Source: a virus | Lineage: Duplodnaviria > Caudoviricetes | Strand: one strand, 5' to 3' | Virus record (IMG/VR): IMGVR_UViG_3300033074_001484 | Span: 116,351-180,350 of that record | Length of the DNA: 64,000 nucleotides | Part shown: positions 11,569 to 56,032 of the stretch, one piece after another | Numbering within the stretch: the first letter of the stretch is position 1 | Layout of the letters: each line of letters opens with the position of its first letter | Position numbers and translations under genes: made by a program | The notes under the pieces: generated by a model | Database searches by the model: none | What the model was told of the DNA's origin: nothing | Seen by the model: the letters and a program-made list of their open reading frames with translations, nothing else

Positions 11569-13392
11569 TTATTCCTGAGCGTCGAATGGGAACAATGCAC
11601 CAGTAGGTAATACAATGAAGTCAACGATCAAGTATTCAACCGTTTTTGCAGGTTTCAAGAATATTGACGCCCTCATTTCATTTCGGTCAATAACATCGGG
11701 TGTATTATTTCTTTCAGAAATTTCGATTCTATAATCATACAACCCTTGTTGGTTTTTAACCCTTCGGAAATATGGCTCAACAATCTCAATGAATCTTGCA
11801 CGTGTCTCCACTGTGTTGTTTTCAAACACAAGGGTTTTAGTTGCCCATGCCACAAATCGTTTTGCATCTATTAATAAACGACGAACATTAATACGGTCAA
11901 GTGCAGATGCTTTTTTCTGTAAGGTTTTTTGACCCCAAACTACCACCCCAGACCGTGGGAATGTTGCAATTGGATTGACACTACGTGTGTATAAATTATC
12001 ACGATCATTTTGTGTCATCAATCGTTCTGTTTGCACTACTGTGTCGAGAACACCACGATTCAATCCGGCAGGTGCATACCAAGGATGTGATACCCGGTCG
12101 TTGAATGAATACACTCCGGAAATCACAGAACTTGGTGGAACCCAACAGTTTCTACCCAAATCTGGATCAGGGATCATTACCCAAGGATAATACATAGCAG
12201 CATAATTTGTATTTCTGGCTTCTGCTGCTATCTGTGCCTGTCCAACTGTAGCACCTTTTAATGTAGGGTCGACAACTAAAAATATATCGCCGCGATCTTC
12301 GCACATATTAATGGCATATGAAACGATTTGCGATTGTTCGCTCGCCCCCTCAGTTATACCCGGTAAGAATAACAGATTAATATCGTATTGGTCTTTATTC
12401 GCAAGAATATCAATAGCATCTTCATACGCGGTTTTACCATACGATGCAGATGCAACATTAAATCCTTGTGTATTGTATGCCCAAATATTTTCATACATAG
12501 CGCGAGGGTGCGTCACATTACCATCACTACCTCCAGAGAATGCACCGGATGCTATTGCCGGTAATGAGCCGGATAACGCACCATCCCGAATTAGACCATT
12601 TGAATTCAAATAATTAAATGTAGAATTTATCCCCTCTACTCTCAAGAACCTTGATCTGTTAGGGTATGATCCAGACCGTTCAAGATATGGTTCACCACTC
12701 GAATCATAACGAAGTGTCCATGTCATATCACCAATAACCTTCGCAATATAATTATTTGACGTTGGGTCAAGTGATAGTTGTGAATATTGTTCAATTACGA
12801 TTCGACGATTACCAGTATCATCACCACGCCGGATAAGCAAATCAAACGTGCCGCGATTTGGATTAACCGCTGAAATCTCCCATCTTATGTTATGCTTCGA
12901 TCCACTGACAAGTAATCCCGATGCTCCTAAATCTGATGCAACATGAGACCCCGATATAGCACCTGCAACTTGTCCCGAATTATAAACTTCACCATCGGAT
13001 AATGATACTAATTTAAACGCCATATTTGCAGCAGTATATGGACCATCATCTTCCAACGATTTAGATGTTATTACATATGAGTAAGCAGGTTGGTAATTAC
13101 CGGCTAACACGCGAACAACGGTCATCACTTCCCCATATCTCAAATATTCCTGAACACAATATGATGTGAGATATTTGTACTCCTGTTCATACACTCCCGA
13201 CCCTGAAATGAAAACATCCCCAAACCAACGTTGATATTCGGAATATGTTGATACCATTGTCGGTACCATTGCCGGTCCCCGTACCGTTGGTCCAATTACA
13301 GCACCACCAACTTCTGGAATTTGTAAAGGCAGGTATGACAAGTCAACTTCTCGTGTATATACACCCGGAGATACAAACGTATTCTTACCCAT
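11569..13392 (-). CDS. tail sheath protein (gp18-like)
   Basis: SPGVYTREVD start, YAAMYYPW, WYAPAG-x-NRG, WGQKTL, DRINVRRL, VFENN motifs. Confidence 0.97.
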   Translation of the reverse strand: MGKNTFVSPGVYTREVDLSYLPLQIPEVGGAVIGPTVRGPAMVPTMVSTYSEYQRWFGDVFISGSGVYEQEYKYLTSYCVQEYLRYGEVMTVVRVLAGNYQPAYSYVITSKSLEDDGPYTAANMAFKLVSLSDGEVYNSGQVAGAISGSHVASDLGASGLLVSGSKHNIRWEISAVNPNRGTFDLLIRRGDDTGNRRIVIEQYSQLSLDPTSNNYIAKVIGDMTWTLRYDSSGEPYLERSGSYPNRSRFLRVEGINSTFNYLNSNGLIRDGALSGSLPAIASGAFSGGSDGNVTHPRAMYENIWAYNTQGFNVASASYGKTAYEDAIDILANKDQYDINLLFLPGITEGASEQSQIVSYAINMCEDRGDIFLVVDPTLKGATVGQAQIAAEARNTNYAAMYYPWVMIPDPDLGRNCWVPPSSVISGVYSFNDRVSHPWYAPAGLNRGVLDTVVQTERLMTQNDRDNLYTRSVNPIATFPRSGVVVWGQKTLQKKASALDRINVRRLLIDAKRFVAWATKTLVFENNTVETRARFIEIVEPYFRRVKNQQGLYDYRIEISERNNTPDVIDRNEMRASIFLKPAKTVEYLIVDFIVLPTGALFPFDAQE

Positions 13393-13409
13393 TAATCATC
13401 CTCTTTTCA

Positions 13410-13418
13410 TATAAATAT
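13410..13418 (-). promoter_or_regulatory. candidate late promoter ATATTTATA
   Basis: Upstream of the sheath gene. Confidence 0.65.
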
Positions 13419-13443
13419 GTAAAAAATAATTCAAAATACAAAT

Positions 13444-14319: not shown

Positions 14320-14322
14320 GCG

Positions 14323-15495
14323 TTACCTTACATATATTTTCAAAGGAACCCTCGACAATTTTTGTTTTAACATATCATCTTCAGCTTGCGACCTTTCCAA
14401 TAATGCTTGTCTGGAATAGGTGTCTAACATCTCCTTCAATTCTGTTAACAAAGATTCTTGCTCAGATTTACCATCAGACCGTAGTGTGTCTCCATCAAGT
14501 TGGACTTCACCGTCAGGAATTGGTATAGAGTTATATTTACTACGCACATTTCCCAACATTTCTTTAACCAATGCTAATGTATATTTTCGTATCCATTGGC
14601 GGGCAACATCATTTAGCCTACTATATTTCAGGTTGTAATATGGCATATTTGCATGTCCTGTTATTTTACCCGGACCATTCTCATCTGATAATTCTGAATT
14701 TGTACCTCCCGGTAATGTATCATCATCTAATGTGTATAAAAACCATACCTTGAATTCCTTATTTGGAATCGGTAATATTCTTAAACGATTATTAGTTAAT
14801 TGGAACCCATATCCAGACTTCCTAATTGTGTCGTTAAATTCAATAGCTTGTAATCGCAATGCATCCCACCACATTGGAACCATTGTAAAATTTATTGGTG
14901 GAGACATATTACCCCACCCAAACTGATCCATAAAATTGGCAGATGAAAGCCCAGTACCCATGAACGGATCATAATATTTAACAATTGATGGGGGTGTATC
15001 GTGGAAAATTCTTCTAATTGTAAATTGATTTACAGTAAAGTCACCCGCTTCAATATCAGCATTCATTAAATCATATATTTGCTGTCCGGGTTGAACGGTT
15101 ATACTACCTGAATAATAAGTTAAATATCCGCCCGTACCTGCTTCTGTACCATATTGCTTTGCCAATTTGAATACAGACCGCAGATTGGGTTGCACCACCA
15201 CATCTGAATAATTAATAGAACTCGTTGGGTATCCTATTAAATGGAGTATGTTATCTCTCGCCTGATATGTATTGACTTGGTTAGCGTATTCAGTAACAGC
15301 CTCTTCAAATGCTGTAAAAAAATTAATATCCTGTAATTCTATACTGACAATAGGGTAGCCCAATCGACGCGCACAGTATTCTGCTATCTTTTCAGCATGA
15401 TCAGCAAATACAGGGTCCGAATCATAAAACCCAAATGGGGTATCACCGGGGTAGAACGATGCTGAACCGGGCCATATTGGAACGTCTGTTGCCAT
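14323..15495 (-). CDS. neck / head-tail adaptor protein (gp13-like)
   Basis: RRLGYPIVSIEL...WIRKYTLALVKEMLG-x-VRSKY...VQLDG motif. Confidence 0.85.
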   Translation of the reverse strand: MATDVPIWPGSASFYPGDTPFGFYDSDPVFADHAEKIAEYCARRLGYPIVSIELQDINFFTAFEEAVTEYANQVNTYQARDNILHLIGYPTSSINYSDVVVQPNLRSVFKLAKQYGTEAGTGGYLTYYSGSITVQPGQQIYDLMNADIEAGDFTVNQFTIRRIFHDTPPSIVKYYDPFMGTGLSSANFMDQFGWGNMSPPINFTMVPMWWDALRLQAIEFNDTIRKSGYGFQLTNNRLRILPIPNKEFKVWFLYTLDDDTLPGGTNSELSDENGPGKITGHANMPYYNLKYSRLNDVARQWIRKYTLALVKEMLGNVRSKYNSIPIPDGEVQLDGDTLRSDGKSEQESLLTELKEMLDTYSRQALLERSQAEDDMLKQKLSRVPLKIYVR

Positions 15496-15509
15496 TCATA
15501 TCCTTTATC

Positions 15510-15518
15510 AATAAATAT
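15510..15518 (-). promoter_or_regulatory. candidate late promoter ATATTTATT
   Basis: Upstream of the neck gene. Confidence 0.6.
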
Positions 15519-15525
15519 AACCTTA

Positions 15526-15874: not shown

Positions 15875-17869
15875 TTATCCTATAAATGTGTATGAATGCT
15901 CACTACCGGGTGCAGAATACAGTGACACATTAAAATCTGTTGCAGCCACTCCTGTTTTTGAACGCCCCTTATATGTATTATCCTCATACACATCTACGTA
16001 ATAATCATTATGATCATCATACACTGCAAATAGATATGATCCATCACCAGTTCTATATGTTTTTTGGTACAATTCACCTGTGTCGGCTCTATATAAACTT
16101 GCAGTTATCACGCCACCGTTGGAATTGGATATTGTACCGGCCAACGACGATGTTAACGAATGATATCCAACATTCAATACCATGCCGGGTCGGGTTATTT
16201 GTTGATTGGCATAAAAGAAATAAGTTTGAGTTTCCAAATTAATTCTGGACTCATCCAAATCACCATAATGTCTTATAATGTTCTGAGTAATATCGCCAAA
16301 CAACCTATGCGTTTCATTTTCAGCATCTGTTAAAGGCGCAGAAAAAAACGATTGTACATAGCTACCACTATAATATCCCCCTTCATATTTGACACCTATC
16401 ATATATACGTTGGCTTGTGTTGAATTAAACACATACCCCTCAATACCAACATTGTGTATTTTATAATACGTGTTTGGGATATTTAATGACGCAGACATAA
16501 ATCTGATAGTATCACCAGTAGCCCCCGATTGCTCATATAGTGGGGTTACGACCATTCGAGATGTTAAATCAATTCCCCCAGATGGCACAGAGCTATGATA
16601 TAACAAATGCATTTGACCTGTTATACCATAGAAAGGTGTACTGGTCGAACCGTACAATGTCAATTTTATATCATTGCCACCGTGCACCAAAGATGCCTGT
16701 GATGACGTGTGTAACATGACACCCTGCCCGGCGTTAACAAAGCCGTCCATTTGATACCAAGACCAATGATCTGAAGTTTCCTCATTGAACGATGCCGTTA
16801 ATCTCGCAGATGCTAATGATGAACCATAAATCTCCGCAGCCACACATTTAGTTGTTATTGGATTAGGTTCCGGTATAGATACACGCTTAATTATAGGGAA
16901 ATTTAATCCAACCGATGATAATTGCGGCATTACATCAAATGGAATTCTGAGGTTATTCAATATTTTTGTAGTTGTAGTTGGATTGTATTCATATGTCACC
17001 CACAATCGCCCGAACATTCCACGATATCTGTTTGCTTTATCCACCCATACCTGAAATGTGTGTGCCGAATCATATGACCCGGTATACGGTATGGCATAAG
17101 TTTCCAACATATTTGTACCAAGAATTGCAACCCTTCTTGGTAGTGGTTGGATCGTCCCCATATCAAAACTACAACTTAAAAAAATAGTTTCTGATGTGTT
17201 AATAATATTATTATTTCCAATTAATTCAATGTATGAATTTTTAATACTTAAATCTCCATATCCTTCCAACCACCCATTAGAACCGGACAATTTAGGTATA
17301 TTTAACCATGTCTGTTGCGATAATGGTAATGCCGGGGACATTGATCCTGATGACATCAATGGTATACATACTGTATTCATTCGAGTGTCCGCAGATGACG
17401 AATATTCATATGTAATGTCTACCCACGAATACACCGCCGTCACCGGTACCCCTGTTTCATTTGTACCCTGTATTTTACCAACCAACTCAAAACTTTGTGA
17501 TTTTGCAGTCCCAAAACTTCCTGTGAAAATATTTACCACATTATGTGGACCAAAAATATGTGCAAAATTTTCATTGGAAGTGTTAAACGCGGTACCCATC
17601 CTAAACACATGTTGATATGCACCCCCACCCATACTACCACTAACAAATGTTGTACCCTGTGATATTGTTAGCCCTCCGGCAACACAAGAATCTGACAATG
17701 TCCAATACACATTTGCCGATCTAAATTTTACCGGCGTTGTAGGTGAATTTTCACCTATATAAATAGACCCAGAACCAAATACCCCTAAACTACCAATATC
17801 AATTGTTGCCGGGTTTTCGCTCGGATTTAATCCATATCTAATTGTACGTAAAAATACCGTATCCGCCAT
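15875..17869 (-). CDS. putative virion fibre / receptor-binding structural protein
   Basis: 664 aa, beta-rich, Ser/Gly/Thr-rich, within a fibre-like gene cluster; coupled to the upstream gene (TAATG). Confidence 0.55.
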   Translation of the reverse strand: MADTVFLRTIRYGLNPSENPATIDIGSLGVFGSGSIYIGENSPTTPVKFRSANVYWTLSDSCVAGGLTISQGTTFVSGSMGGGAYQHVFRMGTAFNTSNENFAHIFGPHNVVNIFTGSFGTAKSQSFELVGKIQGTNETGVPVTAVYSWVDITYEYSSSADTRMNTVCIPLMSSGSMSPALPLSQQTWLNIPKLSGSNGWLEGYGDLSIKNSYIELIGNNNIINTSETIFLSCSFDMGTIQPLPRRVAILGTNMLETYAIPYTGSYDSAHTFQVWVDKANRYRGMFGRLWVTYEYNPTTTTKILNNLRIPFDVMPQLSSVGLNFPIIKRVSIPEPNPITTKCVAAEIYGSSLASARLTASFNEETSDHWSWYQMDGFVNAGQGVMLHTSSQASLVHGGNDIKLTLYGSTSTPFYGITGQMHLLYHSSVPSGGIDLTSRMVVTPLYEQSGATGDTIRFMSASLNIPNTYYKIHNVGIEGYVFNSTQANVYMIGVKYEGGYYSGSYVQSFFSAPLTDAENETHRLFGDITQNIIRHYGDLDESRINLETQTYFFYANQQITRPGMVLNVGYHSLTSSLAGTISNSNGGVITASLYRADTGELYQKTYRTGDGSYLFAVYDDHNDYYVDVYEDNTYKGRSKTGVAATDFNVSLYSAPGSEHSYTFIG

Positions 17870-18489
17870 TAAGATGTTATTTTTATGACTAACGTTGCGC
17901 GTGTTATCGTTGACACAGAATCAACTCTAAACCTAAAAACATCCTCCGCATTTACACTTGTAGTCCATGATGTTAGTGTAGTATCATAATTAATCCTTGC
18001 ATTTGACAATGTGGGTTTTTCGGTACCTGTTATAGTATCTGCTACGGTGGGTGGATGATTAGCAATTGTATCTTTCCACACATCAATGACAATAGACCCT
18101 GATTGATCTGCTGTCAAATACCATCCATTAATTGTACCTGAAAAAGGCACTATAATTTCACCCTTGATCCCTGTTGTAATTTCAGAACCGCCACCATCCA
18201 CAGTTATACCAATTGATCGTATGGCGGATGCAACCACCCCAGATAAACCGCTACCATCTCCAATAAATGATCCCGAAAATGATCCTGTTAATTCTGCACC
18301 AGACCCAATATGGCCGGGTCCGACAAACGTACTACCAAATCCCAATCCTTGAAATGAATGCGCTTGTATTGATCCCGGCAAATCTACTACTATACTGCCG
18401 CCTTCAAGTGTTATACTACCAGAATTAACCGTTAAACTGTTAAGTGCGGCGTTGGACCCTGATAGTATTAATTTTTTCCACTTCGACAT
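17869..18489 (-). CDS. putative fibre protein
   Basis: N-terminus WKKLILSGS shared with 18901-20187; TGSFSGSF-x-GDGSGL fibre motif. Confidence 0.6.
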   Translation of the reverse strand: MSKWKKLILSGSNAALNSLTVNSGSITLEGGSIVVDLPGSIQAHSFQGLGFGSTFVGPGHIGSGAELTGSFSGSFIGDGSGLSGVVASAIRSIGITVDGGGSEITTGIKGEIIVPFSGTINGWYLTADQSGSIVIDVWKDTIANHPPTVADTITGTEKPTLSNARINYDTTLTSWTTSVNAEDVFRFRVDSVSTITRATLVIKITS

Positions 18490-18900: not shown

Positions 18901-20187
18901 TTATGCATAAATATAAACATCCCCATTCTCAATACGAATATTACCATTTTTTTGATAAATAGCATTGTCGGCTTGGCCCCCGTCTACATCAACAACCGCT
19001 GCCAAATATGCGTCCGGGGCAATCGCAGTTGCTTCGCCACTTAATTTTGTAATGGTTTGTAATCCAAATCGTTCTGCTGAATCGTCCCACCCAAATCCAA
19101 CACCTGTAAAATCCGACTCTGTTTGAATTACAAAACCACCATCGCCAGATGCCGATCCTGAATTAAGTAATATGAATCTATCCTCAACCGCTATATTTGT
19201 AACATTTTGATTAATGACTGTACCCAACACAGTCAAGTTACCCCCAATAATAACATCATGGCCGAATTGAGAACCTGAAATTGTAAGCATATTAGTCGAT
19301 GAATTATATGTAAAATCTGCATCTGACGTTACAGTATCCCCATCGCTCCAAAATGTTACCCGTGTAGACGCCCCAGAACCATCTACTAATGAAGACCCCC
19401 ACACTCTCGAATCAATAGTACGTGTTCCCAAATCTCCCGCAGCAGACCATATCGCTACCGTATCCGTGGTTAGTGCCGGGGCTGCTGTTAAATTCAATCC
19501 AGAGCCTGTTATATGGCTTGTAGCGGTAAAATTACCTGTAAGTGAGAGCGTACTACCATCAAATGTTAAATTTGCTTCCCCATTTACACTTGTGGAATCA
19601 ACGGATGTTATAAGTCTATTGTTGGCTGCATTTGTATAGGATGTTATCGCACCCGTGGGCAATCCTGTCAAACCGCTCCCGTCACCTGTAAATGATCCTG
19701 TAAATGATCCTGTTAATCGGGTAGCAGCGACTGTACTACTGTTTACAATAGTACCTGTAAGTGTTAAATTTGTAAACTGTGGGCTATCACCAGTTCCAAG
19801 CCCCAATGATGTACGTGCTGTTGCTCCAGACTCAGCAACCCATGTTGTATTGTTACCAACAATTATATTACCATCTGTAGGAGTTAATAAACTAATATCA
19901 TTAAGACGAGACCCTGATGATATATTACCACCAATGTTAAGCGTAACACCAGTTCCAAGAATAGCACTTGTTCCACCAGCAACAATCACCTTCCCATCAC
20001 CCGAATCAGCTATATTACCACGTGCAACTGATGTTATAGCTGATGTACCAGCACCTAATAAAACCTGTCCAGATGATAAAGTAGCTACGCCGGTACCACC
20101 ACTACCAACCGGTAATGCAGTGTCTAACGATAACGATGATAGTTCCGCTGCTGATCCGGACATTATCACTTTTTTCCATTGTGGCAT
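18901..20187 (-). CDS. fibre protein (collar/tail fibre-like)
   Basis: LPV-x2-GGTG, GE-x-NLTFDG, GNLTVLGT...VEDRFILLN...GFGWDDS fibre motifs; AGGAG SD. Confidence 0.75.
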   Translation of the reverse strand: MPQWKKVIMSGSAAELSSLSLDTALPVGSGGTGVATLSSGQVLLGAGTSAITSVARGNIADSGDGKVIVAGGTSAILGTGVTLNIGGNISSGSRLNDISLLTPTDGNIIVGNNTTWVAESGATARTSLGLGTGDSPQFTNLTLTGTIVNSSTVAATRLTGSFTGSFTGDGSGLTGLPTGAITSYTNAANNRLITSVDSTSVNGEANLTFDGSTLSLTGNFTATSHITGSGLNLTAAPALTTDTVAIWSAAGDLGTRTIDSRVWGSSLVDGSGASTRVTFWSDGDTVTSDADFTYNSSTNMLTISGSQFGHDVIIGGNLTVLGTVINQNVTNIAVEDRFILLNSGSASGDGGFVIQTESDFTGVGFGWDDSAERFGLQTITKLSGEATAIAPDAYLAAVVDVDGGQADNAIYQKNGNIRIENGDVYIYA

Positions 20188-20227: not shown

Positions 20228-20845
20228 CTAAACAGCCCCTATATATAAATTACTTCCACTATATACAAATGCCCCAAGTTCTACCGTTGGCAAGGTATCA
20301 AAACTATGTAACACAAGCAACCCTTCACCATTTATCTTGGCAATTAAAGTTGAACCACTATAAACTTCCAACGAATTAGTAAGAGGATCGTCATGGGTAA
20401 TAATTAAACTACCTGAAACCTGTACCCCTCCATTAACACCATATATGGTAGATAATATTGATCCGGTTGGAGATATAAATGAAACACCATCAACCCCAAC
20501 ATTTAATTTTTTCCAAGGTAAATTCGTTGTACCTAATGAAAACACGCTGGAACTGTACGGGGTTAGTGAGCTTGATATAGTATTAGTAAATGCAATTGAA
20601 TGTGAAGTTTCCCACACTAAAGATGATACTTGATAAAATGGTGTTAATAATTGACCCGTTATATCCCCAATAGGTCCCCTTATCCCCTGTATACCTCTTT
20701 CAATTACAGTAACAATTCTGTTAGGAGCTTCGATATATTGGGTATCACTTTGCTCATTTTGATATACGGTGACCTTACGTATCTCTGACGTTGTAGGCAC
20801 CACCGTTGATGGGGCTGAATATTCTGTAACAATGGTTGTACTCAC
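20228..20845 (-). CDS. putative structural protein with a short collagen-like G-X-Y stretch
   Basis: GIQGIRGPIG; SLG-x4-PWK fibre-like motif. Confidence 0.55.
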   Translation of the reverse strand: MSTTIVTEYSAPSTVVPTTSEIRKVTVYQNEQSDTQYIEAPNRIVTVIERGIQGIRGPIGDITGQLLTPFYQVSSLVWETSHSIAFTNTISSSLTPYSSSVFSLGTTNLPWKKLNVGVDGVSFISPTGSILSTIYGVNGGVQVSGSLIITHDDPLTNSLEVYSGSTLIAKINGEGLLVLHSFDTLPTVELGAFVYSGSNLYIGAV

Positions 20846-21240
20846 CGAGTGACATTCCTACTAATTTTAACCTTACCTTCAAGAACACGTACTACATATT
20901 CAGATACACCTGACCCACTATATAATTCAATATCATAATAACCGTCTTGGAACGTAAACAGGCTACTACTGTATGCACTTATTTGGATTGAAAACGACCC
21001 AGATGAGCGTGGTAATGTTACCGATTCACTTACAGGCGTCATATTGATTCCCGTACCATCTTCCGTAATAGTTGTTGTTAATCTGGCATATACTGTAGAT
21101 GACTCGATTTGCGGTCGAATATGCATACGCGCCTCATAACCTGTCAAATTTATAGGTGTACCATCCGCATTGGTATACAATATGCGGGTATTAAAGGTAC
21201 TACCTTGCTCAATTATAAATGTATGTCTACCTGCTGCCAT
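20842..21240 (-). CDS. fibre adaptor, beta-sandwich (BppU N-terminal-like)
   Basis: IEQGSTF...PINLTGYEARMHIR...YDIEL...RVLEGKV pattern. Confidence 0.65.
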   Translation of the reverse strand: MAAGRHTFIIEQGSTFNTRILYTNADGTPINLTGYEARMHIRPQIESSTVYARLTTTITEDGTGINMTPVSESVTLPRSSGSFSIQISAYSSSLFTFQDGYYDIELYSGSGVSEYVVRVLEGKVKISRNVTR

Positions 21241-35141: not shown

Positions 35142-35729
35142 TTACCAATCCCATGTTAATAAACAATTTACGTTAAATGTAGTCCCATAATACTCATAAA
35201 ACACTTGTGTATTTACGTGTCTACACACCCATTTATAATCAACAGTACCAATGGTGGTACTAAGTGCAATCACCAATTCTAACTTAAATGTTGTTGCCGC
35301 CGATGAATACAAATCAAGAATTGCAATCGGTGATGCCGCTGTTAATTCTTGCCAATCGCTATCCGGTGTAGTACTTAGGGTTTGTGCCAGTAAATTTGTC
35401 GTTGAAATCAATGCCCCCGAATCCTTCACTAATCGAACTAAAACTGAATGTGAGGTCACGTTTGTCGTGTTAACTGTCCAATATGATATACCTACCCTTA
35501 TTTGTGTTATCGCATCCGCATCCGGTGGGACTCCAAGACTGATCCAACTTAAATTTTCATCAGCGCGACGGCCACGTTCAAACACATTTGAAAGTGCTTG
35601 GGCCGTAGATGTAAATTGAAATACAGGTATAGTATTATATGACGATTCAGCAAATGTGATATCTGGGGTTGACCCTACATCAACCATACTCTGTGGAGCT
35701 TCAATTTGTCCGCTTACATCATAACTCAT
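35142..35729 (-). CDS. hypothetical protein, probably structural
   Basis: 195 aa, beta-rich. Confidence 0.55.
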   Translation of the reverse strand: MSYDVSGQIEAPQSMVDVGSTPDITFAESSYNTIPVFQFTSTAQALSNVFERGRRADENLSWISLGVPPDADAITQIRVGISYWTVNTTNVTSHSVLVRLVKDSGALISTTNLLAQTLSTTPDSDWQELTAASPIAILDLYSSAATTFKLELVIALSTTIGTVDYKWVCRHVNTQVFYEYYGTTFNVNCLLTWDW

Positions 35730-42897: not shown

Positions 42898-43481
42898 TTC
42901 ACATCTTTACGTTGTATAAATAAATATGAATTACCATTATCAAACATATCCCATATTACTGTGAACAATTTTGAATATATATTTTTATGTTCATCGTGTG
43001 ATTGAAAGACACAATAATGCGGTTTATGTGTCGCGTCATGCTCAATTGGCACGGTAGACCAAACTATCCCACCATTATTCAAATGTGTGTACATATTTTT
43101 AATCACCAATTCAGGATCATAACAATGCTCCAACGTATGGCTAATAGACATAAGATCAAATTTAAATTCATATGGGAATGGTTCGTGGGCATCGTGTACC
43201 ATAAGATTATTATTAAATGCCACCAATGTTTCCCATTTTACACTCGCCCGTTCTCCTATATCAAATCCATAACTATGTTTGGTATAACCCAACATATATT
43301 CAACAGTCTTGGCAATACCCCGGCACCCTATATCTAAAAAATAAAAACTGGACGGTAATTGAGGAAACACAATATTCAAATATTGTGGCAATTTATTACT
43401 ATTGATAATTAAACCACTACGTTTATTCTGTTCATCATAATATTCACTATCGTATTGCTTTCGTATCATTACGTATCCCAT
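42894..43481 (-). CDS. class I SAM-dependent methyltransferase
   Basis: FLDIGC, YGFD, FDL-x3-SHTLEH-x2-DP, L-x2-GG motifs. Confidence 0.85.
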   Translation of the reverse strand: MGYVMIRKQYDSEYYDEQNKRSGLIINSNKLPQYLNIVFPQLPSSFYFLDIGCRGIAKTVEYMLGYTKHSYGFDIGERASVKWETLVAFNNNLMVHDAHEPFPYEFKFDLMSISHTLEHCYDPELVIKNMYTHLNNGGIVWSTVPIEHDATHKPHYCVFQSHDEHKNIYSKLFTVIWDMFDNGNSYLFIQRKDVK

Positions 43482-45693: not shown

Positions 45694-47382
45694 TTATATT
45701 CCATATTTTAAATGTACCGATAATAACGCTTCCGACGTTGGGTTTTTTTGTATAGGTTTTGATATTTTACCTACTGCAAGCAACTCATAATTAGAATTGT
45801 ATAGTCCTACCGATGTTATGTATACTGACGGATTATATAAAAAATCGCTCTTAATAAGTGCATCTGATCCGGAAACAAATGTTGGATTGTTGGTGAAATT
45901 ATAATCATAATTATTCACCCTTAAATAATAATACCGATTGTATTCGACAACTTGTCGTCGCGCAGTAAATCCAAGCTCATCCCCTGTTGAATCTGTAAAT
46001 GCGGCTCCCCCCGAAATTGCTGTAAATAACTTTTTTGAATTATCACCTTCAACATCAACAGACCGAACTGTTGCAAATGACGCACTTGCATCCAATCTGG
46101 CAGCATCAAGCACAATTATTCCCAATCTTGGGTAGACCTGTCCGTAAACTTGTGGATAGGTTGGATTATATATGCCATCCTCAATAGACCCAGAAACGAT
46201 ATTATAAAATGGTCCGGCCTCACTTGATCTATTAGTTTGAAACGTTCGATATGTCTCAGATATATAATCCTCTGCCTTTGCGCCCTCGGATAACAAAGAA
46301 TAATCAATTCTCGAATCATCAATTAATCTGATAAATTTACCATTACCTGCCAATTGCACATTACTTCCGGTATGTGCGTTGGCGTTACCGCCACCAGCCA
46401 CAAATTCGGAACCGGAAAGTGCAGCGAGGGTAAGTTCTATATTACCAGCATCAATGGCATCACCATACCTATCACGTCGTATATTTATAACGTATATATC
46501 TTCCATTCGGTAATTACCAATCCTGAAGTATCTCTGTGTAGGTTCCACACATAAAAACAAATATTGGTAATAAATTGCCTTTGTTGGGGTCAACACATCA
46601 TTCAACCCAAGGTCCCTTGACCCACCTCCGGCAGCATTCCCATATGCAATATCAAATTGTGGTTCCGATCCACATGTACCATATTCCTTGTTATAAACGA
46701 CTATCCCATAGCTCTCTGACACCTGTGCGTTTGCAGATATATGGAAATTTCTAAGAGTTCCAACATTGTCAGACCACATCCCATATTCAACTAAAGTTGG
46801 AGTTAATTCAAGGACATCATCTGATGAAATTTGTGTGTACACTTTACCGGGAGATAGTTCTTCCGGACAATTAATACCATATTTGATACAATCGTCTACT
46901 GGAATGACCGGTCCAGACTTTTTACAATCAGGACCGCCCTCTGTTGGCCATTTCGATACCTTTATCCATTCGCCAGTTGTAGGTTCAAATGTTGTCCAAT
47001 ATTCAACATATCCCGGTATAAATGTCACAGGCTCAGAATGGTATGTATACCATCGCTGATGGCATTCATTCCAAACCCATTTAATATCCACTTTATCAAT
47101 AAAAGTTGGTGGAGGTGTTTCCTGTTGAACAGGTGGAAGTTTGTTTACAGGGTCTACTACATTTTTTATAGGAGGTTGTTCTTTACCCAATATTTTTATA
47201 TTAGAGTTGCCCCCCAATGGTATGTATTGGGAATCGCCCCCCCAATGCGAGGGTGGAATACCCGGTGGCACATAATTCTTATCAGTTGGTAAGGTGGGAA
47301 CCTTAACAAATGGAACATTACCATCCGGATTATTTTGTTGTTGCCCCGGTGATATTCCGTTATTCCCATTAGTTATTGCCAT
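45694..47382 (-). CDS. peripheral baseplate / fibre attachment protein, paralogue B
   Basis: Pro-rich N-terminus; core clearly homologous to 47389-48903; ends YITSVGLYN...AVGKISKPI-x-K. Confidence 0.65.
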   Translation of the reverse strand: MAITNGNNGISPGQQQNNPDGNVPFVKVPTLPTDKNYVPPGIPPSHWGGDSQYIPLGGNSNIKILGKEQPPIKNVVDPVNKLPPVQQETPPPTFIDKVDIKWVWNECHQRWYTYHSEPVTFIPGYVEYWTTFEPTTGEWIKVSKWPTEGGPDCKKSGPVIPVDDCIKYGINCPEELSPGKVYTQISSDDVLELTPTLVEYGMWSDNVGTLRNFHISANAQVSESYGIVVYNKEYGTCGSEPQFDIAYGNAAGGGSRDLGLNDVLTPTKAIYYQYLFLCVEPTQRYFRIGNYRMEDIYVINIRRDRYGDAIDAGNIELTLAALSGSEFVAGGGNANAHTGSNVQLAGNGKFIRLIDDSRIDYSLLSEGAKAEDYISETYRTFQTNRSSEAGPFYNIVSGSIEDGIYNPTYPQVYGQVYPRLGIIVLDAARLDASASFATVRSVDVEGDNSKKLFTAISGGAAFTDSTGDELGFTARRQVVEYNRYYYLRVNNYDYNFTNNPTFVSGSDALIKSDFLYNPSVYITSVGLYNSNYELLAVGKISKPIQKNPTSEALLSVHLKYGI

Positions 47383-47388: not shown

Positions 47389-48903
47389 TTAAAAATCCAA
47401 TTTAACTTTCAACAATAATTCTCGTGTAAATGATTTTTGTAATGGTTTTGATAGTTTAGCAACCGCCACACATTCCCGACGTTCATTAAACAGTCCAACA
47501 GTAGTTATATAAACTCTTGGATTTCCAATAAATGTTGGTTGGGCAATATCACCCCCTGATCCAGTAGCAAATGATGGGTTATTTGAAAAATTATACTCAC
47601 CATTACGAATCCTGCAAAAGAAGTGGGTTGATTTTACTTTCTCAGCACTGCGACCGGCAAATCCAAGTTGATCACCGCTGGCATCTGTATATAACGCCGA
47701 TCCTGACATAGACGTAAATAATTTATATGCATTATCTCCGCTAATTTCACTACCAGATACTGTGGCAAATGAACAACTCATGTTTAATATATTTCCATCA
47801 AGCACCACTATACCAAGCCGTCTATATAACTGTCCGTAAATATGTGGAGCACTTGAATTATACACCCCATCCTCTATGGAACCAGACACTATGTTATACA
47901 CTTCACCTGAATCAGTAATAGTAGCAGCATTTATTCTCGAATCATCCACTAACCGTATAACTTTACCATTACCTGCAAGTCTTACATTACTTCCGGTATG
48001 TGCGTTGGCGTTACCGCCACCCGCCACAAATTCGGAACCGGAAAGTGCAGCGAGATTTATTTCTAAATTACCCTCATCCAAATATTCCCGCATCCGAGCG
48101 CGGTTCACATTAACCACATAAATATTATCAGTACTATTACCACCAATAGTAAAGAATTCGTCTGACCCGTTTAAACATAATAGACGATATTGTCCATAGA
48201 TTGCGCGTGAAGGGGTGTCGTTTATTTGGCCACCCTCATCAGCCGACCCGCTACCATACTTATGCCCCCATGCGACAGAGAATTGTGGGGCTGCCCCGCA
48301 CGCATCAGATGCAGAGTTGTACACTTCATAATAATATCGCTTTTGATTTGCAGTCTGTACAGATGATGTATAAAACGTTGTAAGAATTCCAACATTATTC
48401 GACCACAGCGCACGAGTGACCGTTTCCTGTTGATTTGGCACCACGTCGCCCGGTTCAAACTTAGTATAAATTCTACCTGATCCTAAATTTGGTGGGGGTG
48501 GAGGTGTAAATGGTTGATTTGGATTACTCGGTGGTACAACTGGTGGTACAACTGGCCCATCCGGTACAAATGGCAATTGTCCACCGCCACCCACAACTTG
48601 TCCACCGCCACCCACAATATTTTGACCTTGAACTTTTGACGGTGTTACTACACTAACTTTATTTGTTTCGTCCACCACGTAAAAGTTACCGGCAATATCA
48701 GTGTATCCAGACACACCAACGCCCGGCATAACTTCCATTGTTGTAGGTGTTGTAGCTGACAACACAGCAGGGTCAGATGATACATAATTTGTATCATAAC
48801 CCATCTGTTTCAACTTATCAATTTGGCTTGAATCAACTGACGCTTTTTTTCCGGCATATGCTGGATTTTGCATCGATGATTTAATGTTAGTTAAAAATGC
48901 CAT
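47389..48903 (-). CDS. peripheral baseplate / fibre attachment protein, paralogue A
   Basis: Pro-rich linker; YNFSNNPSF...YITTVGLFN...AVAKLSKPL-x-K. Confidence 0.65.
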   Translation of the reverse strand: MAFLTNIKSSMQNPAYAGKKASVDSSQIDKLKQMGYDTNYVSSDPAVLSATTPTTMEVMPGVGVSGYTDIAGNFYVVDETNKVSVVTPSKVQGQNIVGGGGQVVGGGGQLPFVPDGPVVPPVVPPSNPNQPFTPPPPPNLGSGRIYTKFEPGDVVPNQQETVTRALWSNNVGILTTFYTSSVQTANQKRYYYEVYNSASDACGAAPQFSVAWGHKYGSGSADEGGQINDTPSRAIYGQYRLLCLNGSDEFFTIGGNSTDNIYVVNVNRARMREYLDEGNLEINLAALSGSEFVAGGGNANAHTGSNVRLAGNGKVIRLVDDSRINAATITDSGEVYNIVSGSIEDGVYNSSAPHIYGQLYRRLGIVVLDGNILNMSCSFATVSGSEISGDNAYKLFTSMSGSALYTDASGDQLGFAGRSAEKVKSTHFFCRIRNGEYNFSNNPSFATGSGGDIAQPTFIGNPRVYITTVGLFNERRECVAVAKLSKPLQKSFTRELLLKVKLDF

Positions 48904-50319: not shown

Positions 50320-53300
50320 CTACCCAACATATAATTCAGAATCCCCCCACGGACTGACATTAAGTGAATTTGGATTACTTTCATAAATTTCAACAATAGG
50401 ACCACCATCAACTGTATCGGGTGAATTCTGATTAAAGTCCGGGGCACTCATCTTACTCCCCAAAAATCTATGATTATTTTCCGGAGCATCTTCTTCATAT
50501 TGATACCCCCAATCTTCAAGGGATCGTGAATAATATAAATTATACGACATGGAGATTGCAGTATGCCACTGTTTCAAATATTGGCTGCCATATTCACCAA
50601 ACGCTCCATAATGATAAATGACTCTTTGATACCCACTTCGAGTTGATCCCCTCGCAATAACTGATTCTGTATGGCTTGTTGATCCTGAATAATTGTTAAG
50701 TTCAATTTCAATGACCCCACATATCTGCCGTGAATCTGCATTTTTATGTGATATTATGTCACATCCCACAGTAAACGGATCGGCTATCGATCCTGTATAA
50801 TATGAGTATAACATGCACAAGTTAAACGGATCGGCTATCGATCCTGTATAATATGTATACCCGATTTGTACCGCCATCGATGCAGTAAATGCAGCATCAT
50901 ATGTAGGAAATTCTCCCGACTGTGATAACTCATACGATAGTTCCTGTTCATATTGTGGATTCTCAATCGTAGGTCGTCGTGTTAATCGTACCTTTGACCT
51001 ATTAATAATATACGGTTCTATCAATATACCAACAATCAAATCAGCCTTTGCCGGTGTTAATTGTTTTACCTGTTCAAAAAATGTATAATCATATAATGAC
51101 AATAACCTTATCAATGAGTTTATATCATTTCTCTGTTGATATTTTTTCCAATATTCATTTGAAAACCGGGTTAATTCTAAATATTCTTCAGAAAATTCAT
51201 CTTCTGGGTCTGCAATTAGATAATCTAATTCACTGAAACCCATATGATTGAATATGTCTCGGTTGCTTTGATCCGCGACCGAAAATACAATAGCTAAACG
51301 ATTAGAATCATTTGTTGCATAGTCGTACTTTGCCTTAACACTTGTACCCGTTGGCGTTAAGTCCCGCAACAATCGGTTCTCATCCAACCGAACTTTTTCC
51401 GAATGTAAAGTATTACCCCCCAGTGTTGGAGTGTATATATAAAACGTTTCTTTAACTGCTGAATATTGTGCAGCTTGGCTACCACTAAAATTATAAAAAC
51501 TGGCAGTGGTATCAAACGAAGCTACTCTATTTGGATGTGACGATGATACCTGTGTATATGTAGAATGGTCCCACCGTTGAACATCTTGCCCAAATGGATA
51601 ATATCTAAACAATGTATAATATGATGACGTTGGGGCATTGCTATGATACGCCGCCGGATTCAATATATGCGAATGAAATGTACGTGCGTCAATGGGTTCA
51701 AAATATTCTTTATACCCATCCATTTTACCAATAAACCGATTAGAATTACTACCGGTAGTTCCTCCTATCAATATGATATTTGGAATATCCACTGACCCGC
51801 TTTCCGCACCCCACCCATACCGCATATCATTTGACGTAGTGAATGAAAAAGATTGCGTGTGTGAAATTCTCCCATATAATCCATCAATCACTTTTCCAAC
51901 ATCAAAACTAATTGACTGGCTATGATATGTATCCGTTATCGGTGATGTTGTTTGGATTTTTACAGTCCAATAATCCCTATCGTATAGTGGTAATAAACTA
52001 CTGCTAACTTGTTGATATACAGGAGAACTTCCACTAATTGTTGCCATCGTGAAACGTAAAAATCCATACGCACTTGATCCCGATATTTCCGAAATTCCCA
52101 ACGAGGCAGTGGCATGTACAATTTCCAAATTAGCTTTGACGATGGACCTATCAGCCCCATCTTCAATGGCCCACAATGACATTGAGACTGATGACGAATA
52201 TTGTGTATTAAATCTGAATATTACAGTATCCGGTACACGTGAAACGCCGCCCCAACTTCCAGATGATATATTAATTAATCGACGGGGAAGTTCAACATAC
52301 TGACTTCCTGATAAATTTAATGAATAAAAATATCTATCCTCAATAAGAGTTGGTTTATCAGTTTCTACTGATGGACCCCCATATTCTTTAACTGAAATTA
52401 ATGTTTGCGGTACCCCATAAATTGATAATAGTGCTCTGACAGATCGTATGGTACCCTTAGTTTTGTACAGGTATGGTAAGTTGTTGACGATTCTACGCCA
52501 CACCATTTTCGTTTGAAGCTCATGTGGTAAATATTCAGAACTTCCAGTGTTTAAAACCTTTCCATCCGACTGAGTTCCAAGTTTATATAAAAATATATTT
52601 GATAATTGTCGAACATTTTGTAATCTCCACCCATATGATTTTGCAACATGGTATAATAAATCATTGCTCATACCACGTTCATAATGTTCGTCTCTCTCGT
52701 GTATTTGTGTTAATGCTCTGACATATGAATATATGTTGTCAAAGTGCTGGCCAACCATATGCACAAATGATACATATTCACTACTCTCCTCATCCATTAA
52801 CACATGTTCCGGAATGGACCATACCAACATGTTCATGTTTCCTTGGTCATAATTCTGTGCATAGGCCAAACTGCTACTTGACCATGTTTGTGCAATTGAA
52901 CTTGTTAAATGATGTAGTACATATTCGCTATTTTGAAGGTATTTTGGATACGGCTGCATTGATCCGCTGAAATCATGTGTAAATATGCTTCCAGTGGTAT
53001 GGTAATACATCCATTTTTCAAACCAATCAAATGAAGTTTTCAGGGTATTGATACGGCCCTGATGTATTCCAATTGACTGTGATACATGCGCAGTATTTGA
53101 AGCGGTTGAGTCAGTTAAAATTGAAATTTTATTTTCATAATCCTCTATCATGGATAATTTGTAAATAAAATTATTTATACGCTCATATGCACTTGAATAA
53201 AACACATAATTTGAAAAATCGGAAAAATCTATATTCAATGTAGCGGTACCGCTACCAGACACACTACTATCAAGTATTTGTTGTGTTATAGGGAGATTTG

Positions 53301-54084
53301 TATCTAAAATATCATCCCACGATTTGTACGTTGTCGAATTACTATTGAAATAGGTGGTATCAATATCAAAATTTGGCCCACGCATGGTATTGGCCACACC
53401 ATCGGATGTATCCGATACCAAAATTACTGTATCAGAATACGTATCAGCACATTCATAATTAAACCACGCAGTATCATAATCTGATATGTCATCTGATAGT
53501 GGATTTATGAATTTGACATAAAATATGTCTGGATTGAATTTATCAATCTTAAAATTACTAATATGAAATAATCTATTGTATCCAAAATTGAGAACAACAT
53601 TGTGAAGGGTCTCATTTGATTGATACGCAGATATTGCAGACACAAATGTAGAATACTCCCCACTTGATATCACTGAGGGGGTCAACTTAAATTTCGCTTC
53701 AGTACGATCAGGACTGGTTTCAAGTAATACAAACGGAGGCGATGTCACATCCCCGAATACAGGTGATAAAAGATTTATATTGACTACATAACTCCCTCGA
53801 ACAATATTTGCAGATTTAAATACCGATGCTAAATCACATAATAAACTATTCGATTTTTTATCCCATCGTATAAAATTTGCACCGACATGATTTCCAGTTA
53901 AATAATCACCATAAAAGGAATATATATGTATCTCAGGATAAAGTTTTGACTCTATATTTGGGTCATCAAAATGGTATTTACCATTGACAAGAAGTAATAA
54001 GTCTTCATTAGACAATACTTGCCCATATTGAGGTATCCTCAATGCTAAAATCGATTCCTTATTTATGAACCTATTTAAACTCAT
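50320..54084 (-). CDS. large baseplate wedge protein (gp7 / P2 gpI-like)
   Basis: 1254 aa; GQHFD, WRRI-x-NNLPYLYKTKGT-x2-S motif; baseplate cluster. Confidence 0.7.
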   Translation of the reverse strand: MSLNRFINKESILALRIPQYGQVLSNEDLLLLVNGKYHFDDPNIESKLYPEIHIYSFYGDYLTGNHVGANFIRWDKKSNSLLCDLASVFKSANIVRGSYVVNINLLSPVFGDVTSPPFVLLETSPDRTEAKFKLTPSVISSGEYSTFVSAISAYQSNETLHNVVLNFGYNRLFHISNFKIDKFNPDIFYVKFINPLSDDISDYDTAWFNYECADTYSDTVILVSDTSDGVANTMRGPNFDIDTTYFNSNSTTYKSWDDILDTNLPITQQILDSSVSGSGTATLNIDFSDFSNYVFYSSAYERINNFIYKLSMIEDYENKISILTDSTASNTAHVSQSIGIHQGRINTLKTSFDWFEKWMYYHTTGSIFTHDFSGSMQPYPKYLQNSEYVLHHLTSSIAQTWSSSSLAYAQNYDQGNMNMLVWSIPEHVLMDEESSEYVSFVHMVGQHFDNIYSYVRALTQIHERDEHYERGMSNDLLYHVAKSYGWRLQNVRQLSNIFLYKLGTQSDGKVLNTGSSEYLPHELQTKMVWRRIVNNLPYLYKTKGTIRSVRALLSIYGVPQTLISVKEYGGPSVETDKPTLIEDRYFYSLNLSGSQYVELPRRLINISSGSWGGVSRVPDTVIFRFNTQYSSSVSMSLWAIEDGADRSIVKANLEIVHATASLGISEISGSSAYGFLRFTMATISGSSPVYQQVSSSLLPLYDRDYWTVKIQTTSPITDTYHSQSISFDVGKVIDGLYGRISHTQSFSFTTSNDMRYGWGAESGSVDIPNIILIGGTTGSNSNRFIGKMDGYKEYFEPIDARTFHSHILNPAAYHSNAPTSSYYTLFRYYPFGQDVQRWDHSTYTQVSSSHPNRVASFDTTASFYNFSGSQAAQYSAVKETFYIYTPTLGGNTLHSEKVRLDENRLLRDLTPTGTSVKAKYDYATNDSNRLAIVFSVADQSNRDIFNHMGFSELDYLIADPEDEFSEEYLELTRFSNEYWKKYQQRNDINSLIRLLSLYDYTFFEQVKQLTPAKADLIVGILIEPYIINRSKVRLTRRPTIENPQYEQELSYELSQSGEFPTYDAAFTASMAVQIGYTYYTGSIADPFNLCMLYSYYTGSIADPFTVGCDIISHKNADSRQICGVIEIELNNYSGSTSHTESVIARGSTRSGYQRVIYHYGAFGEYGSQYLKQWHTAISMSYNLYYSRSLEDWGYQYEEDAPENNHRFLGSKMSAPDFNQNSPDTVDGGPIVEIYESNPNSLNVSPWGDSELYVG
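50772..50855. repeat. 33-bp direct repeat with 51-bp period
   Basis: taaacggatcggctatcgatcctgtataatatg at 50772-50804 and 50823-50855 (YYTGSIADPF twice). Confidence 0.85.
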
Positions 54085-54911
54085 TCTTTACTTTCATATT
54101 CAGCCTTTGCTGCTTCTGCTTCCGCCTTTGCCGCCTCAGCTTGTGCTTTAACAGCTTCTGCTTCCGCAATTGCAGCGGCAGATGCAGCGGCGGCTGCTTC
54201 TGCTTCCGCCTTTGCCGCCTCAGCTTGTGCTAATACCATATTCACCTGTTGTGTCATATTTTCAGATGCAGCAGCTAATAATTCATTTGCACTTTGCGCA
54301 TTTGCATTCAATTCTTCAAGAATTTCAGCGTTGGTTTTATCCTTGTACGCCTCTATCCATGCAGATGATTTATCGGCAATTGCACCTTCTTTTTGTATAT
54401 CGTTACACAATGTATCTGATAATACCCTAACTGATAATAGTGTTTCATTACGCTCGGCAAGCATCACTTCAAGCGTTTTATAGTTCGGTATCTGCCGGGC
54501 TATACCATTACTTACAATGTAATACGTATAATTTTCTTTTGATTTGGGTAAACTATCTTCGGATACACATCTAAAAATAATACCGTCCATCAATGTAAAC
54601 GGTTCAGGCTGTGCCGGGATCGACTCAACATAATACTCAAAATCTATTCTGTTGTTATTTTTTAATGAGGTACTATCTACCACAGTCTTTTCCGGTATAA
54701 AATTAAGATATACCCTGTCCATATTAACATTTACAATGTAAGCATTTGCACCATTGCGATTTGACATGGGATACGTTTCAGAATTTATTTGATATTGCGA
54801 TTTGGAATCAATAGTTTGTCCTTCAATATCCAAACGATTTACCACTAAATCTGACGTGGATTTATTACGTGAAATATATATTATATTATTTAATATTAAT
54901 TCATCTGTCAT
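54081..54911 (-). CDS. hypothetical protein with an Ala/Glu-rich C-terminal coiled coil
   Basis: 276 aa; AQAEAAKAEAEA repeated (39-bp DNA repeat at 54109-54147 and 54193-54231). Confidence 0.7.
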   Translation of the reverse strand: MTDELILNNIIYISRNKSTSDLVVNRLDIEGQTIDSKSQYQINSETYPMSNRNGANAYIVNVNMDRVYLNFIPEKTVVDSTSLKNNNRIDFEYYVESIPAQPEPFTLMDGIIFRCVSEDSLPKSKENYTYYIVSNGIARQIPNYKTLEVMLAERNETLLSVRVLSDTLCNDIQKEGAIADKSSAWIEAYKDKTNAEILEELNANAQSANELLAAASENMTQQVNMVLAQAEAAKAEAEAAAAASAAAIAEAEAVKAQAEAAKAEAEAAKAEYESKE

Positions 54912-56032
54912 ACTCTAACAACCTTAAATTGCATTTCTTGCGTGAAATAATTAATCGATCCAGAATTTTCAACACGAACTGCTATGCGATAATATCTTTC
55001 AGGCATAAACGATGACATGTCCAATGTTATATAATTTCCCCTACTATCGGATGAAATCTTTGTACCTATTATGTCATATTTCAACACCTCAACATCTGTC
55101 GCAGTATCATATATTGCAAGATATGATGTTTCTGGAAGTTTGTATGTTGTAGAATAATGATGTTGCGTTGTATATTGTCTGGTCGGAAATACCGGCCTGA
55201 CTGCTAAATAAATTTTTGCAATTTCTGACCGATTGTACGTGTGCTTTAAATTTACTGGATATACGAGATAATCATAATTATCTATTACATCTATTGCATT
55301 ACTTTGTGTAAACGTGTTCCAATACGCATCTATTTTTGGGATGAATATTGTGTGACTTTCCCGTGAGAAAAATTGTATTTTCCCCATTTGCGATGAGTTG
55401 GTTTCCAACAACGACGGGTATTTTATTATAAAACCATTATTGGGAATTTCCTCTGATATCCATTTATTCACAATGTCCGTCACATCCATTCTGACATCAG
55501 AAGTGTCCAATGAAAATGATTGTGAGCATTCAAAACCACTACCGGTATACCAAACACCACCACCTTGTATTGAATTGTATTCCAGAGCCGCATTACTGCC
55601 ACTTGGGGGAAGTGCCCACTGAGTTTTTTGATATCCGTTGTCCGAATATTTCCAACTCACCCCATCCTGTATATTTGGCCTACTATTTGAAAATCCTGTC
55701 CCATTGACCCAACTACTTGAAAGGGGATATGCCTTTATTTCATAATCGGTAGTATTATTATACGCATAAGTTGCATATAAATTTAAATAATATCTAACAC
55801 TTCCTGAAATTTCCCCGGAAGTTATTTTTTGTTTTATATCTGTAAAATCAAATTGAATTAATATTCGACTATTAGTAGTTGCTTCATTTGAAACAAACGC
55901 ATCCACAATAGATTCTATTTGTGATCCCGATGTAATTTTCCACAATTCAATTATTTGATCAGTTCCAGTATTCATAAGTGGGAACTGTTCATATACAGTG
56001 GCATCCTTACTTGGGTAAATTGATTTATACAT
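54908..56032 (-). CDS. structural protein with a DNRLRE/CBM-like beta domain
   Basis: KDATVYE...NTG...SRILIQFD...W-x2-GTG...DVTDIV-x2-W...NNGFIIK...FFSRE. Confidence 0.6.
   Translation of the reverse strand: MYKSIYPSKDATVYEQFPLMNTGTDQIIELWKITSGSQIESIVDAFVSNEATTNSRILIQFDFTDIKQKITSGEISGSVRYYLNLYATYAYNNTTDYEIKAYPLSSSWVNGTGFSNSRPNIQDGVSWKYSDNGYQKTQWALPPSGSNAALEYNSIQGGGVWYTGSGFECSQSFSLDTSDVRMDVTDIVNKWISEEIPNNGFIIKYPSLLETNSSQMGKIQFFSRESHTIFIPKIDAYWNTFTQSNAIDVIDNYDYLVYPVNLKHTYNRSEIAKIYLAVRPVFPTRQYTTQHHYSTTYKLPETSYLAIYDTATDVEVLKYDIIGTKISSDSRGNYITLDMSSFMPERYYRIAVRVENSGSINYFTQEMQFKVVRV

Follow-up and report, generated by a model that had tools for sequence, protein, structure and literature searches.

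A clade-specific [ST]GS motif on outward-facing virion proteins of large aquatic myoviruses: a candidate O-glycosylation sequon

A three-residue motif, Ser or Thr followed by Gly and Ser ([ST]GS), is strongly over-represented in the predicted outer-surface virion proteins encoded by a 64,000-nucleotide stretch of viral DNA (Duplodnaviria; Caudoviricetes; positions 116,351 to 180,350 of IMG/VR record IMGVR_UViG_3300033074_001484). This whole stretch is referred to here as the window. It carries 62 sizeable open reading frames (ORFs), all on the minus strand, which form a late-gene block of a large myovirus. A preliminary description of the window, made from the sequence, had proposed that the motif is a recognition site for a modifying enzyme that shields the particle, for example an O-glycosyltransferase. 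The best-supported reading of the present analysis is that a hydrophobic residue followed by Ser or Thr, then Gly (less often Ala or Ser) and then Ser forms an O-glycosylation sequon on those parts of virion proteins that face outward, and we give this reading an even chance of being correct. The idea of an enzyme recognition site gained support from the enrichment of the motif, its confinement to virion proteins, its selection, the glycosyltransferase (GT) and amino-sugar genes of the clade, and the loss of the motif in the related phage LR756508. The expected co-occurrence of motif and enzyme beyond this one clade was not found.

In the 62 ORFs, [ST]GS occurs 75 times, compared with 19.3 expected from the composition of each protein. 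Shuffling within blocks of 10-50 residues, which keeps local composition, gave about 21 ± 4.5 sites and a maximum of 36. SGS is the most over-represented tripeptide of the window (54 vs 10.6 expected, z 13.3), the next-ranked tripeptide having a z of about 7. Anagram counts, which provide a control free of any composition model, were 15 for SSG and 9 for GSS against the 54 for SGS (binomial P 1e-10). For TGS the count is 21, and its five anagrams have 5-13 apiece (P 3e-4). The residue at position -1 is hydrophobic in 65% of the sites, and the four-residue form, hydrophobic-[ST]GS, is found 47 times where 3.8 ± 2.0 are expected. Among the variants named in the preliminary description, [ST]AS is enriched (18 vs 7.5) and [ST]SS weakly so (23 vs 15). 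No enrichment in the window was seen for SGT, AGS, SGN, SGD or NGS. The spacing between adjacent [ST]GS sites peaks at 15-17 residues (9 pairs vs 1.8 expected). This peak, which is unclear in the relatives, would fit sites placed on every second turn of a beta-meander.

There is next to no chance that this excess arose artefactually, from a composition rich in Ser, Gly and Thr, from duplicated modules or from a DNA signal such as GATC in GGA-TCN codon pairs. The motif-bearing proteins do have a higher Ser, Gly and Thr content, two of them (45694-47382 and 47389-48903) are paralogous, and GATC is present in 28% of the sites. However, a 3.5-5-fold excess persists under both the anagram control and shuffling in 10-residue blocks, paralogy accounts for only 6-7 or so of the 75 sites, and 22% of sites would contain GATC from codon usage. 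In the sites, each of the four Gly codons and each of the two families of Ser codons is used at near-background frequency, and the signal therefore lies at the protein level. Taken together, the shuffle, anagram, codon and paralogue controls exclude DNA-level GATC, composition and paralogy as the source of the excess, and the enrichment first seen by eye survived correction for overall and local composition. Across the window GATC is under-represented (152 vs 208 expected from base composition).

The motif is confined to virion proteins. Of the 75 sites, 73 fall in thirteen proteins (6,831 aa) that belong to the sheath, the capsid insertion, the baseplate periphery or the fibre-like group, and the remaining 49 ORFs (13,520 aa) hold two where 7.5 are expected. 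Each of the per-protein counts in the preliminary description was reproduced exactly, and a recount likewise gave zero for the following of the proteins it had listed as free of [ST]GS: the tape measure, portal, tubes, hub, gp6- and gp25-like proteins, terminase, primase and the SbcC/Rad50-like protein. The convergence of unrelated folds on one motif that it had claimed also holds, since the sites are shared by the sheath, the capsid insertion and the baseplate and fibre proteins.

Within the gp23-like major capsid protein (MCP; 22003-23664, 553 aa, PHROG 138), the three sites lie at residues 185, 263 and 269, in what had been described as a variable central insertion. This placement was borne out by 71 distinct MCPs, in which all 122 motif sites fall at window residues 120-269, a poorly conserved central insertion, and none in the conserved core that makes up about 73% of the protein. 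An AlphaFold2 (AF2) model of the MCP, poor overall but usable in the insertion (predicted local distance difference test, pLDDT, 59.5), placed the three sites at strand/loop junctions. The tail sheath (11569-13392, 607 aa, PHROG 23, E 2e-70) contains five SGS at residues 63, 147, 163, 240 and 274. All five lie within variable residues ~60-290, and the conserved C-terminal half has none. The 120 closest sheath homologues have 4-8 sites apiece, all of them at residues 40-340. The identity of the sheath is supported by precomputed Pfam domains (contractile sheath PF04984/PF17482) and by an AF2 model (pLDDT 61.5) that matches T4 gp18 (Foldseek E 6e-19) and minimal pyocin-type sheaths, with VIA Z values of 13.8-15.1 for the fold comparison. 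Pyocin-type sheath chains (~385 aa) align to this model over ~270 residues, and residues ~60-290 can be read from it as extra domains (~220 residues) that have no counterpart in minimal sheaths. Insertions of T4 gp18-type sheaths face outward, and by analogy the sheath insertion of the window would do so as well. The local contexts of the five sites in the model vary and comprise a disordered loop, a helix end, a coil, a strand end and a short helix. Mapping on predicted structures, which the preliminary description had suggested, thus puts the sites in the variable or outer domains of both proteins, at the resolution of domains in moderate models.

The window has both cultured and uncultured relatives. 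The closest cultured MCPs are those of Microcystis phage Mel-JY01 (54.5% identity) and the Flavobacterium 'immuto' phages (52.5%), and those of the uncultured 484-kb phage LR756508 (51%) and the more distant Rhodothermus phage RM378 (35%) are also related. At least 226 related MCP stretches are present in IMG/VR, and sheath and GT relatives number in the thousands in a database of 5.8 billion proteins, Tara ocean records among them. Whole-sequence comparisons covered immuto, Mel-JY01 and six long IMG/VR contigs (G001, G002, G003, G006, G007 and G008). One 93%-complete member of the clade (IMGVR_UViG_3300017917_005384, 155 kb) is classed as a provirus by IMG/VR, which is unexpected for a T4-like lytic lineage.

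Retention of the motif was measured by comparing the motif-bearing proteins of the window with their orthologues from eight relatives. [ST]GS was retained as [ST]GS in 44% of the comparisons, whereas the figures for other tripeptides, S/G/T-rich tripeptides and anagrams are 12.7%, 12.2% and 6.5%, respectively. Of the three positions, the third Ser is kept best (64% vs 36% for other Ser of the same proteins), and position 1 remains Ser or Thr in 68% of comparisons. The motif Gly is conserved at the background level for Gly (57% vs 56%), and most of its replacements are Ser or Ala, in agreement with the modest excess of [ST]AS. By these comparisons of orthologues the motif was shown to be under purifying selection that is centred on the third Ser. 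A structural turn would be expected to keep its Gly above all, and the background level of Gly conservation therefore speaks against a purely structural turn.

Across the phages compared, the motif excess is a feature of one clade and not of myoviruses at large. The structural genes of T4 have no excess (SGS 11 vs 8.8 expected; TGS 2 vs 8.2). Over whole genomes or contigs, the counts of SGS, SSG and GSS are 64/24/19 in immuto, 63/30/32 in Mel-JY01, 46/15/14 in G001, 116/30/20 in G002, 53/19/16 in G006, 56/19/20 in G007 and 37/18/15 in G008. In immuto, Mel-JY01 and five of the six long IMG/VR contigs, SGS is thus 2-6 times as frequent as its anagrams and is concentrated in sheath, baseplate-distal and fibre proteins. 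In G003 (13/8/8) the enrichment is limited to the sheath and an adjacent 555-aa protein. The replication and metabolism regions of four relatives, pooled, gave 32 sites where ~45 are expected, which is no excess and perhaps a slight deficit. An apparent division of the relatives into motif-poor and motif-rich groups proved to be an artefact of considering 20-kb neighbourhoods around the MCP, as whole contigs are all enriched. For this reason, the first comparison of this division with the presence or absence of a family 2 glycosyltransferase (GT2) was uninformative. One subclade carries, downstream of the MCP, a 1516-aa collagen-like Gly-X-Y protein with GTQ/GTT/GSQ repeats (L030:14622-19172, also in L031). 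TGS in these contigs stems from the repeats and is unrelated to the motif, and does not belong in a pooled TGS figure.

LR756508 differs from the clade in this respect. Its MCP is about as similar to that of the window as those of immuto or Mel-JY01 are. Its baseplate module is syntenic with that of the window and has the same proteins in the same order. However, its three sheath paralogues have no motif sites, its orthologue of the 1254-aa wedge-like protein (50320-54084) has two compared with 11-20 in the clade, and its orthologue of 54908-56032 has none. Over 150 kb, SGS occurs 18 times against 14 for SSG and 20 for GSS. The folds of these orthologues therefore do not require the motif. In columns where SGS is conserved in the clade, LR756508 and other exceptions often retain the Gly and lose the serines, and from such alignments the serines look like an addition onto pre-existing turns. 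The three sheath-like genes of LR756508.1 (824, 824 and 779 aa, ~202.5-212.7 kb, L141:3463-13652) correspond to one gene in the window clade. In RM378 the motif is weak (SGS 11 vs 5 and 5 for its anagrams).

The relatives share a set of genes that could supply the enzyme. This syntenic cassette encodes a PD-(D/E)XK nuclease, a GT of ~480-496 aa, a second GT of ~436-475 aa, a small protein and a GT2 of ~207-258 aa, with a further ~396-aa GT2 and an epimerase nearby. It is conserved at 45-52% identity, comparable to the MCP, in immuto, Mel-JY01, G001, G002, G003 and G006, and occurs in identical gene order in another relative, L137. Around it are genes for DegT/WecE aminotransferases, a PglD-like acetyltransferase, 4,6-dehydratase/epimerase-family enzymes and methyltransferases. 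Neither a transmembrane segment nor a signal peptide was predicted in the cassette proteins. Among 50,697 phage records the first GT was found in seven, which belong only to immuto, Mel-JY01, LR756508 and RM378, the phages with the nearest MCPs. The second GT and the 207-aa GT2 were not found in the complete genomes of LR756508 and RM378. The absence of the motif from LR756508 orthologues thus correlates, within one clade, with the absence of two of the three soluble clade GTs. Against Glycos_transf_1 (PF00534, cut-off 26.4 bits), the immuto ~480-aa GT scores 30.1 bits over residues 285-354 only, and the ~436-aa GT scores 20.8 bits, under the cut-off. The best solved-structure match to the first GT is the chlorovirus NY-2A GT B736L (PDB 3oy2), a weak match (E 0.0016) over ~120 residues. 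In Mel-JY01 the orthologue of the first GT is split between two annotated coding sequences, with one in-frame TGA inside the match (PP395634.1 83438-84929, L004:33438-34929), and may represent a broken gene, read-through or a sequencing error.

As the preliminary description had noted, there is no GT within the window. The sheath of the window is recorded on a contig of 180 kb, and an exact match to the window was not found among viral contigs, JGI metagenome contigs or GenBank phages. The left end of the window is carried by a 49-kb Logan contig, L133, which leads 8.9 kb beyond it and in which genes for a gp32-like protein, RecA, a 5'-3' exonuclease, DnaB, a class II ribonucleotide reductase and a metallophosphoesterase lie to the left of the window (L133:9599-18968). 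L137 has a gene order like that of L133, followed by PolB and then the cassette. Because the two orders agree, the cassette is expected ~15-16 kb to the left of the window. A family search for the GT in the 5.8-billion-protein database did not return an orthologue from the window's own genome; the hit P0126 belongs to another relative. A search for the second GT in unrelated lineages gave only contigs of the same clade or fragments that carry no MCP.

The proposed mechanism can be outlined as follows. A soluble phage-encoded GT would read the motif in the host cytoplasm, the candidate enzymes being the two larger GTs, the small protein and the ~207-258-aa GT2 of the clade-conserved cassette. 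Further transferases, using amino-, deoxy- and methyl-sugars made by the phage, would then extend the first sugar. In this way a glycan coat would form on the insertion domain of the capsid, the outer domain of the sheath, the baseplate periphery and the fibres, and this coat could serve in shielding, colloidal stability or adhesion. More broadly, we consider it somewhat short of an even bet that an abundant, T4-distant clade of aquatic myoviruses, with thousands of metagenomic members and hosts including Flavobacterium and Microcystis, coats all its outward virion surfaces with a phage-made glycan by means of a hydrophobic-[S/T]-[G/A/S]-S O-glycosylation code and a conserved trio of soluble GTs. 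Modification of the motif, its nature as a sugar, the identity of the acceptor among the Ser and Thr, and the role of the coat are all inferred.

Several points weigh against glycosylation of the motif. Throughout the clade the case for a modification is one of sequence comparison and predicted structure. The exposure of the sites is resolved at the level of domains, in AF2 models that are both moderate (pLDDT 59.5 and 61.5). In the window's own genome the cassette is predicted from the synteny between L133 and L137. Of ten long GT-bearing contigs, two hold an MCP, both from the same clade, and no independent GT lineage was found among them; the motif-rich G007 and G008 show no GT, these contigs being 58% and 49% complete. 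The association of GTs and motif rests on one clade and three outgroups and is therefore close to a single evolutionary event. Moreover, the cassette could function in the modification of DNA or of some different acceptor. Two sites of the 47389-48903 family are retained even in LR756508, and the hydrophobic residue at -1 and the 15-17-residue spacing also fit a structural motif at strand ends.

The last of these points leads to a different explanation, in which the motif has a structural role peculiar to this lineage: a glycine turn capped by Ser, located where strands end, would stabilise beta-rich outer domains or assembly interfaces and carry no modification. We regard this as appreciably less probable than glycosylation, though well worth serious consideration. 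Such a turn would account for the frequent hydrophobic -1 residue, the strand/loop junctions in the MCP model, the regular spacing, the Gly that is often ancestral at motif positions and the two universal sites of the 47389-48903 family. It would also suit the N-terminal SGS of two fibre-like proteins, which lies inside a conserved, probably docking, peptide. However, equal folds in LR756508 and T4 manage without the motif, and the common turn variants SGT, SGN, SGD, NGS and AGS share none of the enrichment. The pattern of conservation, with Gly at background and the third Ser far above other Ser, is also not that of a turn, the local contexts in the sheath model differ among sites, and the motif is common to unrelated folds. 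Some other trans-acting reader would account equally well for a motif that is under selection, specific to one lineage and restricted to surfaces, and whose Ser is conserved. It could be an enzyme of a different Ser modification (phosphorylation, acylation or a phospho-sugar) or a chaperone or assembly factor of the phage, or the motif could bind a ligand at the particle surface; the tie between motif and sugar in this analysis is one of correlation. Nevertheless, the GT/sugar cassette is the conspicuous clade-specific set of enzymes, the phage that lacks the motif also lacks two members of this set, and no other enzyme was found to track the distribution of the motif, although no systematic search was made. 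A reader of this other kind seems unlikely to us.

The motif-bearing proteins, all encoded on the minus strand, were identified from PHROG and Pfam matches and from orthologues, the terminase and primase of the window being recognized through their immuto orthologues. In the head-proximal region, a neck or head-tail adaptor-like protein (14323-15495, 390 aa, PHROG 211) has one site, and a protein of an unassigned family in the fibre-like gene block (15875-17869, 664 aa) has seven where 1.4 are expected. The preliminary description had given no individual counts for the four ORFs that follow. These encode a virion structural protein (17869-18489, 206 aa, PHROG 10330) with five sites, a fibre-like protein (18901-20187, 428 aa) with seven, and two fibre-like products with four (20228-20845, 205 aa) and two (20842-21240, 132 aa, PHROG 1084). 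The first two of these four share an N-terminal W-K-K-[LV]-I-[LM]-S-G-S-x-A-x-L-x-S-L and an internal TGSFxGSFxGDGSGL. Their N-terminal peptide matches the starts of the immuto fibre and tailspike genes (67% over 30 residues) and is probably a common virion-docking module. A further fibre-like protein (35729-38092, 787 aa) and a protein with a Laminin_G_3/concanavalin-like domain (43469-45136, 555 aa, Pfam PF13385) have five sites each.

At the baseplate, the paralogous baseplate-distal proteins 45694-47382 (562 aa) and 47389-48903 (504 aa) contain four and seven sites, the latter number being found also in the orthologues of four relatives. The 1254-aa protein encoded after the gp6-like gene, wedge-like by synteny only and without a PHROG family, has 14 sites where 1.7 are expected, and the baseplate protein 54908-56032 (374 aa) has five. 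The tape measure (4006-8073, 1355 aa, PHROG 4372) serves as a motif-free internal control, with no site where 1.5 are expected. Sites are also absent from the portal (29445-31265, 606 aa, PHROG 213), from the gp6-like and gp25-like proteins of the inner baseplate wedge (56390-58732, PHROGs 219, 261 and 43) and from the three tail-tube paralogues (9746-11522, PHROG 4542). The tube genes are arranged in tandem and their products are 31-39% identical to one another; immuto and Mel-JY01 have one tube gene each.

Virion glycosylation by phage-encoded enzymes is, to our knowledge, experimentally established for few phages, and we know of no sequon for it. The literature searched contained neither a description of an S-G-S sequon nor one of glycosylated virions in the clade of the window. 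If the proposal is true, glycosylation of phage virions would gain its first defined sequon. It would then become possible to predict glycosylated sites from sequence in a phage group that is very large and ecologically abundant, and to recognise which regions of uncharacterised virion proteins are exposed at the surface. For glycoengineering, interest would lie in a compact O-glycosylation system that is soluble, acts in the cytoplasm and uses a tag of three residues. The coat would also bear on the resistance of aquatic phages to proteases, to non-specific adsorption or to host recognition. The sequon hypothesis is directly testable in the cultured members of the clade, immuto and Mel-JY01.

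The proposed system can be compared with several known ones. The Bacteroidota O-glycosylation sequon D-(S/T)-(A/I/L/V/M/T) and the N-x-(S/T) sequon resemble the motif in being short signals that mark many surface proteins, but the motif-bearing proteins show no excess of either (D[ST][AILVMT] 29 vs 26.6 ± 5.1 expected; N-x-[ST] 69 vs 76.5 ± 7.2). Bacteroidota O-glycosylation acts in the periplasm, and virions assemble in the cytoplasm. A mechanistic model for a hydrophobic-SGS site at strand ends is offered by the autotransporter heptosyltransferases (TibC/TibA, Aah/AIDA-I), in which a soluble cytoplasmic transferase modifies many Ser in short loops between beta-strands of a beta-rich surface protein. 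The resemblance is one of mechanism, and these enzymes belong to a different GT family, the heptosyltransferases, and serve a single dedicated substrate. Chloroviruses and giant viruses glycosylate their capsids or fibrils with virus-encoded soluble GTs and rare-sugar pathways, independently of the endoplasmic reticulum or periplasmic machinery of the host. The likeness extends to the chlorovirus B736L, the best if weak solved-structure match to the first cassette GT, whereas the hosts are eukaryotic and, in chloroviruses, the glycans of the capsid are attached by N-linkage, at atypical sites.

Mycobacteriophage virions are reportedly glycosylated by phage-encoded glycosyltransferases (Freeman et al. 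2023, as described in PMC12619734), and there too a tailed phage uses its own GTs to place glycans on virion structural proteins in the cytoplasm as a surface shield; for the present clade, GT genes are found in the relatives of the window and predicted by synteny for the window's own genome, and the coat is proposed. The mycobacteriophage glycans are located on C-terminal extensions of capsid and tail-tube subunits (PMC12619734). The sites of the window differ in being internal tripeptides (MCP residues 185-271 of 553) that are spread over many proteins, with none in the three tube paralogues. The 'moraphages' are large phages from aquatic habitats for which Bacteroidota hosts are predicted and whose core genes include four GT orthogroups with no assigned target (PMC12619734). 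Their description mentions neither immuto nor RM378 and includes no protein motif. What they have in common with the clade of the window is large size, an aquatic habitat, a probable Bacteroidota host and glycosyltransferase genes in the core genome.

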